Origin: Terracidiphilus sp.
Lineage (GTDB): Bacteria; Acidobacteriota; Terriglobia; Terriglobales; Acidobacteriaceae
NCBI GenBank assembly: GCA_035317045.1
Contig: DATHHT010000017.1
DNA length: 64,000 nt
Reading direction: 5' to 3' (one strand)
Shown: in pieces, positions 8,880 through 60,962 of the stretch
Layout: every line of letters begins with the position of its first letter
How positions within the stretch are numbered: the first letter of the stretch is position 1
The notes under the pieces: model-generated
The model's input: only the letters and a program-made list of their open reading frames with translations
What the model was told of the DNA's origin: nothing
The model's database searches: none
Program-made: the position numbers and the translations under genes

Positions 8880-9988
8880 ACAGGTTTATGGCGATTGTCG
8901 AGCGCGAAATGCGGAAGTTTTTCCGCTCGCCGGTGCTGATGATCATGTCGATGATGTTGCCGCTGGTGCAATTGATCATTCTGGGAAATGCTTTTGGCGG
9001 GAAGATTCGCGGGGCGAAGGTGGCGGTCGTTGACCACGATCATGGCCCGCAAGCGTTGAGGATTCGCGAGGCGTTCGATTCGGTTGCGGTGAACATTGCA
9101 ACGTTCACGACAGTCAATTACGACGATGAAACACAAGCGCGGGAGGATGTTCGGACCGGGAAGGTGGATGCGGCTGTGATCATCCCGGCACAGTATTCGC
9201 GGCGCGTCTATTCGCAGGATGCACCACGGATCGGGCTGGTGGTCGACAACTCCGATCAGTTTATGAGCGGCAGCCTTGAATCGGAGATGCAATCGCTGAT
9301 CGACGCGCTGAATCAGCCAGTGATCCAGGATCGGGTGGTGAAGAATATCGCGCTGGAGATTGTCGAGCTGTATCCCTACGTCGAGTACATGAAGTACCTG
9401 CTGTCGGGGTCGATTGCGCTTGCGATGTACATCTCGGTGATGATCGGCGGCGGGATGCTTTATATCGACGACAAGGCGCGCGGTGTGCACGAGGGATACC
9501 TGGTGACACCGATCAGCAAGCTTGAACTGGTGATGGGACTCAATGCGGCCGGCGCCATCAAGGCGGTGCTGGCGGGGATTTCGCTGACAGTGATTGGATC
9601 GCTGATGGCGGGGTTGGGCACGATTTTTCACCCTCTCGCATTGTTCCAGCTGTTCTTGCTGATCGTGGGAGTGTCGATCGCGTTCAACGGAATGATGTTT
9701 TTGATGATGGTGCGGGTGGACGATCCGCTGGTGCCGCGCGCGATGTTTGGGGTGCTGAATACGCTGCTGTTCTTTCCTTCGGGTGCGATTTATCCGATCG
9801 CGGCGTTTCCGAAGTGGCTGCGGGCTATCGCGATTGTCGATCCATTCACGTATGCGATTCATGGGTTCAAGGCGATCCTGCTGAAGGATGGCGGGTTCGT
9901 TGCGATTCGGGGAGATTTACTGTTTCTGTTTCTGTTTGGGATCGGCACGCTGCTGATTGCAACGCCGCTGTTCAAGAGGACACTTTAA
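8876..9988 (+). CDS. ABC-2 type permease
   Basis: N-terminal TM, periplasmic domain and 5 C-terminal TMs; DPFTYAIHG; ATGA overlap with the ATPase gene. Confidence 0.92.
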   Translation: MNRFMAIVEREMRKFFRSPVLMIMSMMLPLVQLIILGNAFGGKIRGAKVAVVDHDHGPQALRIREAFDSVAVNIATFTTVNYDDETQAREDVRTGKVDAAVIIPAQYSRRVYSQDAPRIGLVVDNSDQFMSGSLESEMQSLIDALNQPVIQDRVVKNIALEIVELYPYVEYMKYLLSGSIALAMYISVMIGGGMLYIDDKARGVHEGYLVTPISKLELVMGLNAAGAIKAVLAGISLTVIGSLMAGLGTIFHPLALFQLFLLIVGVSIAFNGMMFLMMVRVDDPLVPRAMFGVLNTLLFFPSGAIYPIAAFPKWLRAIAIVDPFTYAIHGFKAILLKDGGFVAIRGDLLFLFLFGIGTLLIATPLFKRTL

Positions 9989-9990
9989 GA

Positions 9991-10077
9991 ACAGTGGACG
10001 GTGAACAGAGAGCCGTGAACAGTGGACAGTGGACAGTGGACAGTGAACAGTGGACAGTGATCAGTGAACGGGACCAG
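9991..10077 (+). repeat. Heptamer tandem array (CAGTGRA)n
   Basis: aacagtggacggtgaacag...cagtggacagtggacagtggacagtgaacagtggacagtgatcagtgaac immediately after the permease stop. Confidence 0.9.
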
Positions 10078-10100
10078 TAGGCGAGAACAGCGAATAGGGA

Positions 10101-10268
10101 TTAGAGGTTTGAGTTTCCGGCGGGTAGGACGGTTAGTCCGGAATGCGATGAGGCGGTCCATTCCTTGTGGGAGGGTGGGCCGCCTTGGCGCTTCTGGAGA
10201 GTGCCCGCGGAAGACCTGATTGAGGGGGACCTGCGCTCCGGCGGTATATGCCGGCATTCGATGAACAT
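10101..10268 (-). CDS. Small ORF (55 aa, MFIECRHIPPERR...), possibly a decayed gene
   Basis: AGGAG SD 8 nt upstream of the ATG; lies at the end of conserved non-coding module A; below the ORF-track cutoff. Confidence 0.3.
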   Translation of the reverse strand: MFIECRHIPPERRSPSIRSSAGTLQKRQGGPPSHKEWTASSHSGLTVLPAGNSNL

Positions 10269-10299
10269 GGACGTGACTCCTTGGCCCTATTACTCACTC

Positions 10300-10580
10300 T
10301 CTCTGGGTAAAGATTTTATTTACATTGACTTGCAGACGAGGGTGGCGCTAAAGATCTGTGAGGCTTGGGGATCGCTATAGAGGTTTCTGCGGATTGGACT
10401 TAGCGGACAGGCGGTGCTGGCGGAGGTATCGGGCGCCATGCGCACGATCACGGAACTGGTGGATTCAATCACGATTCCATTGTGCGCCGGGAGGGGATAA
10501 TTACCTGCAAAATGGCGGGAAGTTTTTTGCGAGTGGAATGAGGGAGTTAGCGGGAATTTTCGCGAAGGGGGCTTGACGGG
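10300..10580. other. Conserved non-coding module, copy A
   Basis: Colinear similarity to about 60110-60395 with conserved box spacing (see findings). Confidence 0.7.
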
Positions 10581-10625
10581 TTATCGGAGTTAGCCGCGCT
10601 TCGCGCGTGATTGCGGAGTTAGTTC

Positions 10626-10749
10626 GTGCTTTCCCACCCAAGCGGAGCTTGGATGGGGCACCCTGGTTCGTACCGATGTCTGAATTTTCACGGCAGATCC
10701 TTCGACTCCGCCTGGCCGAATAGCCGGCCAAACTTCGCTCAGGATGACA
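10626..10749 (+). repeat. Composite REP element (GGGGCACCC hairpin + GCAGATCCTTCG...CAGGATGACA element)
   Basis: First 77 nt or so near-identical to the sequence starting at 38434. Confidence 0.85.
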
Positions 10750-10804
10750 GATCAATTCTGATGCGAATTTTAGAAACAGGACACTAGATCCGCAATTTCG
10801 AGCT

Positions 10805-11533
10805 TCATCGCGCCGTGGCCGCAGCGGCGGAGGTTTGTGCGGCATCAAGTGTGAGATTTTCCTGCAACGACATCTGGAATTGCCATCCCGCATCGAAGAG
10901 GATGAAGTCGGTGCTGCCGGCGTGGTGATGACCGATTACGAGGGAGAGCACGAGAATGCCTACGCCTGTGCCGATGCCGATGCCTGCCAGGGTTCCGGGA
11001 GACGGTCCTACGGAGGGCAGCGGCGGCAGCGGTGGAAGCGATGGAGGGTTCTGGCCTTCAGCGACGAACGCCTTGCCGAGGTATGGCGCGCCGTCGCGGG
11101 CGTCTGCGAGCAGATACGTTGGCTGTGTTTCCGCGCCCGGAACAGACAATTTAGCCTGCACGTTTGTGGCAACCAGCGGAACCGAGTAGCCGTTCGCGAA
11201 AAGAAGGCGGGTGAACCGAAGTTGTGCGGTCGCTGAGTTACCGGCTCTTGGGTGCGCATTCACCTTGTCGACAATTCCTTCAACGTAAGTGCCTGCTGGG
11301 ATGGCGACGCGCGTTCCGATTGCGAGAGGGAACGCCACAACAGCGCGCACCGGATCGCCCGGCCTGGTGGATTTGCTCTTGATGGAGGTGATGAGGTTGA
11401 GCGCAACGAGGGTTCCCATGGGCACTGTGATGGTGTTGGTGGTCGCCGCGGGATCGACAGGCTGCGGAATGGTAGGCGTTTGTGCAGCGCTGATGGAGGC
11501 GATCAGGAAGAAGGCAACAATTTTAAGCCGCAT
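10805..11533 (-). CDS. Secreted protein with TrbI/VirB10-like beta-barrel and a glycine-rich hydrophobic segment
   Basis: Signal peptide; VPMGTLVAL...GDPV...IPAGTYVEG...LRFTRL pattern; GIGIGTGVG segment. Confidence 0.6.
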   Translation of the reverse strand: MRLKIVAFFLIASISAAQTPTIPQPVDPAATTNTITVPMGTLVALNLITSIKSKSTRPGDPVRAVVAFPLAIGTRVAIPAGTYVEGIVDKVNAHPRAGNSATAQLRFTRLLFANGYSVPLVATNVQAKLSVPGAETQPTYLLADARDGAPYLGKAFVAEGQNPPSLPPLPPLPSVGPSPGTLAGIGIGTGVGILVLSLVIGHHHAGSTDFILFDAGWQFQMSLQENLTLDAAQTSAAAATAR

Positions 11534-16433: not shown

Positions 16434-16510
16434 GGGCGGTTAGCTCAGTTGGTTAGAGCGCCTGCCTTACAAGCAGGAAGTCCGGGGTTCGAGTCCCTGA
16501 CCGCCCACCA
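16434..16510 (+). tRNA. tRNA-Val (anticodon TAC)
   Basis: Acceptor stem GGGCGGT/ACCGCCC, D-loop AGTTGGTTA, anticodon arm CCTGC-CTTACAA-GCAGG, GTTCGAG T-loop, encoded CCA; 77 nt. Confidence 0.97.
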
Positions 16511-23105: not shown

Positions 23106-23352
23106 GTCCCTCCGGGATTGGGTTCATGTCGTCTGCTATCCCCAGGGTTCCGCTGCGCTCCACCCTGGGCTATTTTCCTGCGTTCCCTCCCGGAACTTCG
23201 TGGAGGCCGTTTGCTCAGAGTGACAGGGCAGAGGTGAAAGGCCCCGTGCGCCCGCTGTTCTGATTCGGACCGGCCCTACGGGGCGGGAGGCGATGGCTCG
23301 GATTTGTCCCAGGGTTTCACCCTGGGCTATTATCGGACGTCCCTGCGGGACC
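23106..23352 (+). repeat. CCCAGGG/CCCTGGG-type REP doublet
   Basis: Two CCCAGGGTT...CACCCTGGGCTATT hairpins; CGGCCCTACGGGGCGG (23271-23286) shared with 42417-42432. Confidence 0.75.
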
Positions 23353-60026: not shown

Positions 60027-60104
60027 CGGCTGGTGAGCGCAAGATTTCCCGCTGCAAGATACGCAATCTAACGGTTGCATGTTGCCCTCCCCCCTCCCCC
60101 CCCC

Positions 60105-60395
60105 GTACTCTGCAAGAAAGATCGTGATTGCAAAGAAGTTGCCAGTGTGGTCCGACGCCAAAGTCTTCCAGGTATTGGACTTAGCCGTAGAGTCTTCTCA
60201 GGAAATGACTTAGCGGTGGAGGTTTGTCGCTGTGACGCTTGAATCCGAGGGCGATCTGCTGGTGGAAATGCCCGGATACTGGCTCATGATTCAAGGATAG
60301 CAATTTTGCGGAAATGACCTGCAAATGCCAGGGAAGTTTTTGACGAATGGCCTCAAGGGTTTACGGGAAATGTGTGGGACCAAGGGGTTGACAAA
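60105..60395. other. Conserved non-coding module, copy B, preceded by a poly-C tract (60085-60104)
   Basis: Colinear similarity to about 10300-10580. Confidence 0.7.
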
Positions 60396-60962
60396 GGATT
60401 TTGAACCGGCGCGGAAGCTGGAGGCGCGGGAGTTTTTGCCACTCCCACTCACGCCTTGCCCGTTCTATTTGGTGACGTCTCCAACCCCGAACATAAAAGC
60501 GTCTAAAGACTCCAACGGGCTGAAGCCGAACTCACCGCTCTCTAAGGCTTTTCGGGAGTGAGAGTAAAACAGCCGCCTTCTGTTGTCTGAATTGCCCCGG
60601 GAATCTCTGACTCAGAGAGTACCGTTCTGGAGCCACCTATCAACATGTTTGTTTCCTGTGCTCGCGCTACAACAAGTAAGAGCGACATGAGGCTTGCTAC
60701 TACCCAGCGCCAAGGCTGACCGTGTTCCGCGGACCATGCGAAGGCTCTCCCCATGCAGCCTGAAACCTGCAAATATGAAATCACAGCCCAATCGCCTGAA
60801 GTGTGCTGCTCAGCACACATCGGTTTGGTCGCTGCGAAAAAGTGCTCCGCGAGAATCGTGGACGATTCGGCAATGGACCGTGTTGAGAATCGGACACGCT
60901 TTGTCACTTTGCCGTTTTATGATGGACCTTCTTTAATTTTGCTGGAAGGGAACAACGCTAAA

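Follow-up and report, generated by a model that had tools for sequence, protein, structure and literature searches.

Here we present a previously undescribed family of dispersed non-coding elements from a group of soil Acidobacteriaceae, recognised through two homologous members of one repeat family, copy A and copy B, that lie in the same window (the whole 64,000-nt stretch of a Terracidiphilus sp. contig analysed here). In kind the family is ordinary, a bacterial interspersed repeat; what is unusual is its strand polarity, its module of fixed length, its link to a protein gene and its use as an IS target. Our tentative reading, held at somewhat less than even confidence, is that the element is an interspersed intergenic mosaic that provides a DNA-level platform for DNA-binding proteins, and that it is neither an RNA gene nor a classical transposon. 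In the Acidobacteriaceae, which are abundant in soil, genome organisation and regulation have hardly been studied, and the family adds up to a large body of non-coding DNA, clearly under selection and tied to a very large unannotated protein family.

Two copies in the window and a genome-wide family

The initial annotation had pointed to two colinear non-coding stretches in the window. In direct comparison the pairwise signal is weak: BLASTN of copy A against copy B returned a single 59-nt match (76% identity, E 0.13), and identity in a MAFFT alignment of the two is patchy. Profile searching demonstrated that the stretches are nevertheless homologous, since copy A alone, used as a single nhmmer query against the whole 5.29 Mb genome, retrieves copy B at E 1.2e-6; the iterated nhmmer family profile recovers both copies with far lower E-values (Table 1). 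The module thus exists, but the length of ~280 bp first given for it does not stand, and the limits of the two copies are those listed in Table 1.

Copies on contigs C23, C25 and C35 of the same genome share 79-84% identity with copy A. Copy A occupies a long intergenic gap between the end of an ABC-2 permease gene at 9988 and the end of a convergent gene at 10805. This intergenic region is a patchwork in which several other repeat families are also present. Copy B, a diverged solo copy, likewise lies in a long intergenic gap, with a DUF502 gene (end 60026) on one side and a GDSL-type hydrolase gene on the other.

As had been proposed, a profile was built from the copies and the genome was scanned with it. 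The iterated nhmmer search converges at 70 hits, which merge into 66 loci distributed over both strands of the 5.3 Mb genome, and further copies were found in related genomes. The window by itself reveals neither the link to a gene nor the strand polarity nor the IS1595 insertion site described below. About 45 of the 66 loci are near full length, the element measuring 310-400 bp. According to the codon-usage gene calls made in this analysis, all copies are intergenic, and the arrangements of their neighbouring genes are of every type (14 tandem, 12 convergent, 11 reverse tandem and 5 divergent). Solos make up the majority of copies, copy B among them, and in some copies only the distal module is present.

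For counting copies across species we used R1, a sequence-only covariance model of the distal module. With this model the genome contains 57-59 copies, 38 other species of the same GTDB genus (the Terracidiphilus/Telmatobacter group) contain 0-42, and a few weak matches appear in 9 of 60 other genera of Acidobacteriaceae. Family DNA adds up to roughly 20 kb per genome, and elements are distributed at about one per 100 kb. A literature search for an Acidobacteria repeat already described returned nothing relevant.

Architecture of the element

Read on the + strand of the window from the gene-proximal end, the element consists of an end box, three tandem direct-repeat boxes, a variable spacer and a distal module of ~108 bp (Table 1). 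At the left end a C-run precedes TATTATCCCGTCTCT or the variant CCCCCCATACTCTG, and in the solos the left-hand similarity stops just outside the C-run. At the right end, similarity stops directly after GGGGCTTGAC(A/G). When the end box is read on the gene strand, it presents a -10-like GATAAT followed by a G-run.

Each of the three direct-repeat boxes finishes in TTAC or TTAG, and boxes 2 and 3 are retained in the orthologous copy of another species. The box starts first reported, at 10309/10350/10379 in copy A and 60117/60160/60189 in copy B, were recovered in both copies as conserved columns of the family. The same is true of three further motifs, TCAYGATTC, ACCTGCAAA..GGGAAGTTTTT (at 10503 and 60317) and GGGG(C)TTGAC, all of which are present in both copies and conserved across the family. 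Also, the pattern described for the two copies, in which the linkers have diverged while the box spacing is kept, is found in the family alignments.

The distal module is 105-110 nt long and has almost no indels despite a mean column identity of 63% (alignment A4). Within it AAT, CTGCAA and TTGAC are invariant, and a T-run, TGGAAT and TTAG are near-invariant. The centres of its boxes lie roughly 20, 12, 11.5 and 26.5 nt apart, values near multiples of the helical turn as judged by eye from the alignment, without statistics. A coding role for the module was rejected, as stop codons occur in all frames on both strands. In copy A the module is followed by a subfamily-specific extension, which overlaps the start of an unrelated repeat of ~90 bp.

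Table 1. Features of copies A and B in window coordinates
Feature	Position	Strand	Details
Copy A, whole element	10239..10637	+	Family profile positions 6-407, E 1.1e-103; small-gene-linked subfamily
Copy A, decayed small-gene remnant	10101..10268	-	First 8 codons (MFIECRHI) homologous; nucleotide homology to intact paralogues ends near 10246
Copy A, Shine-Dalgarno (SD) AAGGAG	10277..10282	-	8 nt before ATG 10268; conserved in gene-linked copies
Copy A, gene-proximal end box CCCTATTACTCACTCTCTC	10285..10303	+	Consensus C-run + TATTATCCCGTCTCT; solo copies terminate here
Copy A, direct-repeat box 1	10309..10336	+	Last 8 bases CTTGCAGA (10329-10336) align with octamer GTTAC(A/C)GA
Copy A, direct-repeat boxes 2 and 3	10349..10406	+	Two ~29 nt tandem units, consensus AGAGTyTTCT-N6-AAGGACTTAG
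Copy A, variable spacer	10407..10472	+	Unalignable between most copies; heptamer repeats in some
Copy A, distal module	10473..10577	+	R1 83 bits; alignment A4
Copy A, invariant boxes of distal module	10479-10488 (ATTGTGCGCC); 10567-10577 (terminal GGGGGCTTGAC)	+	In order: ATTGTGCGCC, AATTACCTGCAAA, T-run, TGGAATGAG, GTTAG, terminal GGGGGCTTGAC
Copy A, hairpin	10496..10531	+	CCTGC 10504-10508 pairs with GCGGG 10515-10519; T-run 10523-10528; 58.9 bits
Copy A, subfamily-specific extension	10578..10637	+	GGAGTTAG repeats around a GC hairpin
Copy B, whole element	60080..60406	+	Family profile positions 41-354, E 8.5e-47; diverged solo without gene remnant
Copy B, three direct-repeat boxes	60117..60216	+	
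Copy B, distal module	60290..60393	+	R1 55.4 bits; R2 23.1 bits, E 0.043; terminal GGGGTTGACA 60384-60393
Copy B, hairpin	60318-60332; T-run 60337-60341	+	CCTG 60318-60321 pairs with CAGG 60329-60332

Age, turnover and selection

Judging from their sequence divergence, the copies within the genome are old: in the distal module the best pair is about 91% identical, and most pairs are 60-75% identical. About 12 solos form a lineage-specific subfamily with 72-85% identity, indicating that new copies arose in this lineage. Five congeners lack copy B behind their DUF502 orthologue; the intergenic DNA there is too diverged to fix the exact ends.

Several copies are orthologous between this genome and that of Telmatobacter sp. 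DSM 110680, where they have syntenic flanks. In the two orthologous solo pairs that were aligned, one of which is a distal module only, the boxes are kept whereas the sequence between them is unalignable, which is direct evidence that purifying selection acts on boxes at a fixed locus. It is mainly this box conservation at orthologous loci that leads us to rank a DNA-level function above pure selfish turnover. The proposal that selection acts on something other than coding is likewise implied by the conserved boxes, the kept spacing and the diverged linkers.

The linked gene for a small Cys/His-rich protein

The complete form of the element lies directly upstream of a gene for a Cys/His-rich protein of ~170 aa, unassigned to a family, and stops ~20 nt before the SD/ATG of this small gene. 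A scan for the small protein in species-representative genomes yielded 78 loci in Acidobacteriaceae, and at 62 of these the element immediately precedes the gene in the same arrangement, including loci with a protein identity of only 30-45%. In the present genome, ~10 copies run on, along the minus strand of the window, into an SD, an ATG and a Cys/His-rich frame (MFNECRHILTSGHKCKAAALRG.AFCYYH...). This frame is intact (100-170 aa) in four of them and decayed in the rest; intact paralogues of that length are located on contigs C35 and C2.

The initial annotation had reported an SD and a minus-strand ATG beside both copies. The one at 10268 is indeed a homologous small-gene start, belonging to a decayed gene, but the ATG at 60080 is not homologous: it is part of an unrelated palindrome, and the frame it opens enters the adjacent DUF502 gene in antisense. 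The idea of a regulated 5' leader is apt for the complete form, in which the element directly precedes the small gene.

No conserved surroundings of the element + gene unit were detected, either as neighbouring genes or as sequence past the stop codon. Five genomes rated 96-100% complete have 8-20 well-scoring elements and zero copies of the small gene, from which we conclude that the element is independent of the gene. In the complete genome of Telmatobacter sp. DSM 110680, one of the 33 copies found by the family profile is gene-linked.

The small protein is annotated as hypothetical in every record. It has no match in Pfam, NCBIfam or PHROGs, ten longer members of its family contain no Pfam domain, and tblastn searches of plasmids and phages revealed no relative. 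PADLOC gave a marginal match to a single member only (E 0.0076), and the comparison with WhiB was non-significant (E 0.22). Searches at the structural level, with a PDB sequence profile and with an AlphaFold model of medium confidence (pLDDT 77) in Foldseek, produced neither an assignment nor a fold match. Among 1.8 billion representative proteins, the profile of the protein gathers 4467 clusters (E up to 0.001). Residue conservation is suggestive of a zinc finger at the N-terminus and of a cluster of the form C-x5-C-x2-C-x5-C.

RNA structure, terminators and promoters

With its conserved boxes, and with the complete form immediately upstream of a gene, the element could represent a family of structured non-coding RNAs or act as a riboswitch-like leader for the small gene, but we regard this as highly improbable. 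An Rfam scan of the window at the gathering threshold returned only tRNA-Val and Acido-Lenti-1, both outside copies A and B, and E-value scans of both regions (E up to 5) gave nothing relevant, in keeping with the initial annotation, which knew of no named element and had asked for this search. RNAalifold on the profile columns found no consensus structure (energy about -2, covariation penalty positive), mapping of helices onto the same columns gave no consistent helices, and for each of three parts (left, middle, right) the fold z-scores on either strand fall between -0.6 and 0. Furthermore, solos and distal-module-only copies are found in every gene context. Given these results, and a level of covariation equal to that of shuffles, the ncRNA family put forward among the initial proposals did not hold up.

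The sole recurring structural signal is a short hairpin on the + strand, CCTGC-loop-GC(G/A)GG, situated between an A-run and a T-run. With a small covariance model and pair counting, the hairpin pairs in 81% of cells, compared to 34-65% with the partners slid, and stems of at least 5 bp are present in 32% of copies versus 5% of shuffles. Among 189 stem pairs, 44 are G-T on the + strand, which are A-C mismatches on the opposite strand, and the mean fold z of the hairpin segment is -1.18 on the + strand versus -0.67 on the other. Also, a terminator-like site is predicted in copy A (10504-10519 plus the T-run), and 22 of 33 solos lie behind the 3' end of a co-oriented gene. All of these observations favour a 3'-UTR or terminator-insulator on the + strand of the window, in which transcription of the upstream gene would stop at the A-run/T-run hairpin and the boxes would serve as signals in RNA or DNA that govern termination, processing or stability.

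We nevertheless consider the terminator reading improbable. Covariation in the hairpin is not above shuffle controls, and measured against an intrinsic terminator the stem has just 4-5 GC-type pairs and the T-run is 3-5 nt away from it. The 22:11 bias among solos is non-significant (binomial p about 0.08) and depends on crude gene calls, and the gene-linked copies receive no transcription from that side. Finally, ~200 bp of conserved boxes upstream of the hairpin and 55 bp downstream of it would be left unexplained.

Several promoter and binding motifs were considered as well. TTGACA was rejected as a sigma-70 -35 box, a TAnnnT at spacers of 15-19 nt being present in 0 of 64 copies, and sigma-54 and ECF-type motifs, compared by eye, were discarded because their GG and GC positions are unconserved. 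Canonical promoter prediction called none in the regions of copies A and B, and the -35 region upstream of GATAAT on the gene strand is poor. Two motifs of the initial annotation had to be withdrawn: the minus-strand -10 at a fixed offset, as CACAAT belongs to a box restricted to one subfamily, and the IHF-like box, which does not fit the IHF consensus WATCAANNNNTTR.

Strand polarity and mobility

In 49 of 61 copies in this genome (p about 2e-5), the + strand of the element coincides with the strand that is locally G-rich by GC skew; for comparison, 54% of long genes lie on that strand. In the complete genome of Telmatobacter sp. DSM 110680, 28 of 34 copies match the skew of the surrounding 20 kb (p 2e-4). 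The gene-linked copies obey the same orientation in nine cases out of ten. Mean coding-strand skew is +0.08 for co-oriented genes and -0.08 for anti-oriented ones, indicating that the skew is a regional strand property and is not due to gene orientation. If the skew reflects replication, the small gene would usually be on the lagging strand. The polarity of the element could help to orient contigs relative to replication.

An alternative that we judge less likely is a non-autonomous mobile element without terminal inverted repeats (TIR) or target-site duplication (TSD) that moves in a strand-specific manner, for example via single-stranded DNA at the replication fork in the way of IS200/IS605-type elements. 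The element with its small gene would then be the autonomous form, or some other enzyme would mobilise it, and the boxes would be needed in cis. In its favour are the ~66 dispersed intergenic loci with discrete ends, the orientation to the G-rich strand in two genomes, a copy number that varies from 0 to 57 across the genus, the expansion of a subfamily in this lineage, the lack of copy B at the orthologous site of relatives, and the presence of the element + gene unit in unrelated contexts. The ends themselves also fit: the left end (C-run + TATTATCCCGTCTCT) is not the reverse complement of the right end (GGGGCTTGAC), and in 21 solos the longest word common to both flanks has a mean length of 4.6 nt versus 4.9 nt for random flank pairings, which reveals no TSD. 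Additionally, the genome contains three Y1 transposase genes (PF01797 matches), the nearest of which is 1-3 kb from a copy and none of which is flanked by copies.

Set against mobility is, first, the age of the family, as no pair of copies exceeds about 91% identity even in the best-conserved module, and orthologous solos have been retained with their boxes intact since the split of the two species. Conservation extends over the whole element and not the ends alone. There is no folding signal at the element ends that would represent subterminal hairpins of the IS200/IS605-PATE/REPIN type, a left-end G-run/C-run hairpin being found in only about 8 copies, and a search of the genome for a tnpB-type gene gave no match. 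The small protein, which lacks a Pfam, NCBIfam, PHROG or fold match, bears no transposase, HUH or recombinase signature, and genomes without the small gene still have 8-20 well-conserved elements. Within the genome, no empty sites (paralogous joined flanks) were found that would form a filled/empty pair, and strain look-ups by identical flanking proteins returned the same arrangement only, or a contig ending at the repeat.

Two more specific candidates were tried and rejected. A MITE would have TIR, TSD and a parent IS with identical ends, and none of these was found. An IS1595-family element was considered as parent, but its insertions lie inside the element and have inverted repeats of ~28 bp and an 8 bp duplication of their own.

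These insertions are instructive in their own right. Five of the eight IS1595-family transposase genes in the genome adjoin an element that is cut at one identical profile position. In the two cases in which both junctions are readable, the ~28 bp inverted repeats are bordered by the 8 bp duplication, GTTACAGA or GTTACCGA, the duplicated octamer being the stretch conserved at the end of box 1. Identity among the inserted elements is only about 70%, so the insertions were separate events; moreover, in an orthologous Telmatobacter copy an IS end is found at the same box-1 octamer site. The box-1 octamer is, then, a repeated IS1595-family insertion site, and such repeated targeting of one octamer provides a clean example of a "safe-haven" target.

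A possible platform for DNA-binding proteins

Among the functions proposed initially, a putative nucleoprotein assembly site fits best. In the platform model, the boxes would be bound by proteins, with those of the distal module phased near whole helical turns. The complete form would serve as the upstream control region of the ~170 aa Cys/His-rich gene, and its gene-proximal end may be an activator-dependent promoter. Solos would persist because the bound complex plays a local, strand-polar role. Copy A is an element + gene unit in which the gene has decayed.

Some features of the family are not readily accommodated by this model. A promoter or operator role does not account for the bias in strand orientation, which strand-specific mobility fits equally well or better. 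The mechanism of copy gain, as reflected in the subfamily expansion and in the missing copy B of five congeners, is left open by the model. Also, a version in which the element is a promoter for its neighbours predicts a co-oriented gene next to it, and such a gene is downstream of just 11 of 33 solos according to our own crude gene calls.

A bolder proposal, which we regard as a long shot, is that the family is a new strand-polar chromosomal cis-element recognised by small proteins of a new family that bind Zn or Fe-S. It would act either as a polar barrier or organiser of replication or transcription, or as the cis part of a new class of mobile elements without TIR and TSD, with the ~170 aa protein as a recombinase of a new type.

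If the boxes are protein-binding sites, the family would offer 60 natural sites and a set of invariant motifs for finding new DNA-binding proteins in the phylum. If instead the element is mobile, it would represent a transposition system that lacks inverted repeats, duplications and any known transposase.

Comparison with known systems

Reused or "mobile" promoters are homologous upstream regions that stand before unrelated genes and form highly similar groups (PMC3575422). Like them, the element is an upstream block that is present in many places, detached from its original gene, and that ends near the expected transcription start of this gene. It differs in having no recognisable sigma-70 promoter, in that a co-oriented gene follows only about one solo in three, and in that its distal-module-only copies lack the promoter-proximal part altogether. 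Furthermore, mobile promoters form groups of high similarity, whereas the copies of the element are old and diverged.

With MITEs, IS200/IS605-derived PATEs and RAYT-mobilised REPINs, the element has in common that it is small, non-coding, intergenic and multi-copy. Elements of the IS200/IS605 type have no TIR and no TSD, and their orientation is tied to replication; the element resembles them in the absence of both and in its orientation bias (49/61 and 28/34 copies with the skew). In contrast to MITEs, it has no TIR, no TSD and no parent IS sharing its ends, and in contrast to PATEs and REPINs, it has no subterminal hairpins, no tnpB match was found in its genome, and the Y1 genes do not adjoin copies. 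The element also differs from all three in that its conservation is internal and phased, and is not limited to the ends.

The BIMEs of enterobacteria, including the IHF-binding RIP/RIB type, ERIC/IRU and the rhizobial RIMEs are mosaic repeats. BIMEs and similar repeats are extragenic, occur in tens to hundreds of copies, often after the 3' ends of genes, are thought to be platforms for host DNA-binding proteins, and are used by specific IS elements for insertion. The element differs from them in having no REP-type palindromic unit, the genome having separate REP-like families, and in being much longer (310-400 bp), with tandem direct repeats and an indel-free module of 108 bp. It also differs in that its orientation tracks strand composition and that, when complete, it forms the region upstream of one particular protein gene. 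In sequence the element and these repeats show no similarity, and the likeness is one of kind only. The element too is extragenic and multi-copy, has conserved motifs in a fixed mosaic with variable linkers between them, and is an insertion site for a specific IS, the IS1595 family. Among known systems, its closest analogues are the BIMEs of enterobacteria, those of the IHF-binding type among them, together with mosaic repeats of a similar kind.

Mobile elements associated with the repeat

The octamer GTTAC(A/C)GA, carried by different copies of the element, is a common insertion site of IS1595-family insertion sequences, which have inverted repeats of ~28 bp and generate a target duplication of 8 bp. 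The insertions found at this octamer are diverged, with a mutual identity of ~70%, and an insertion of the same family likewise occupies the octamer in Telmatobacter sp. DSM 110680 (sequence L126). Three matches to Y1 (IS200/RAYT-type) transposases were also found in the genome; one has an internal stop codon and two lie 1-3 kb away from an element copy, and none of the three has element copies on both sides.

Features of the window and of other contigs (C-numbers denote contigs of the same genome)
Feature	Location	Remarks
IS1595-family insertion in element copy	C27:15681-18309	
IS1595-family insertion in element copy	C23:114735-117095	
IS1595-family insertion in element copy	C11 near 237030	
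IS1595-family insertion in element copy	C11 near 470800	
IS1595-family insertion in element copy	C41 near 11445	
Y1 transposase match	C34:23319-23633	
Y1 transposase match	C25:40320-40589	
Y1 transposase match	C25:43930-44223	
Palindrome GATAyGCAAC-N4-5-GTTGCrTATC	window 60058-60081	about 28 sites genome-wide
Tandem heptamer array	window 9991-10078	
First repeat family right of copy A	window 10618-10712	
Second repeat family right of copy A	window 10690-10788	
tRNA-Val(TAC)	window 16434-16510	
Acido-Lenti-1 RNA (Rfam RF01687)	window 23308-23352	40.4 bits

Adjoining palindrome and downstream protein family

In 7-8 element copies, including copy B, the gene-proximal end is directly adjoined by a palindrome that resembles an operator; other sites of this palindrome occur without the element.

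P0001, the small Cys/His-rich protein encoded directly downstream of the complete form of the element, belongs to a very large, uncharacterised family that lacks a Pfam model and comprises 4467 clusters at E values up to 0.001 and 2607 at E values up to 1e-10. Its conserved residues include a C/H motif in the N-terminal part and a cluster of the form C-x5-C-x2-C-x5-C. The Acido-Lenti-1 RNA and the tRNA-Val(TAC) of the window are unrelated to the element.

Genomic setting and neighbouring repeats

Both this genome as a whole and that of the complete relative, Telmatobacter sp. DSM 110680, show a very strong regional GC skew (about +/-0.08 to 0.18) that does not depend on gene orientation. Along the Telmatobacter chromosome the sign of the skew changes many times and two replichores are not formed, a pattern suggestive of numerous inversions or of an unusual history of replication.

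Just past the stop codon of the ABC-2 permease gene to the left of copy A, a 7 bp unit of the CAGTGAA/CAGTGGA type is arrayed in tandem; arrays of comparable heptamers are found on many contigs, and some copies of the element have them in their variable spacer. A metagenome contig carrying an identical permease gene (ENA ERZ27267892 k141_674018) ends 778 nt past the stop codon, within the repeat-rich region of copy A, probably because the repeats interrupted the assembly there. To the right of copy A lie two additional repeat families. The first, ~90 bp long and including GGATGGGGCACCC, has copies 85-93% identical on at least 15 contigs, among them two further ones in the window near 11020 and 53021, and appears to be a REP-like family.
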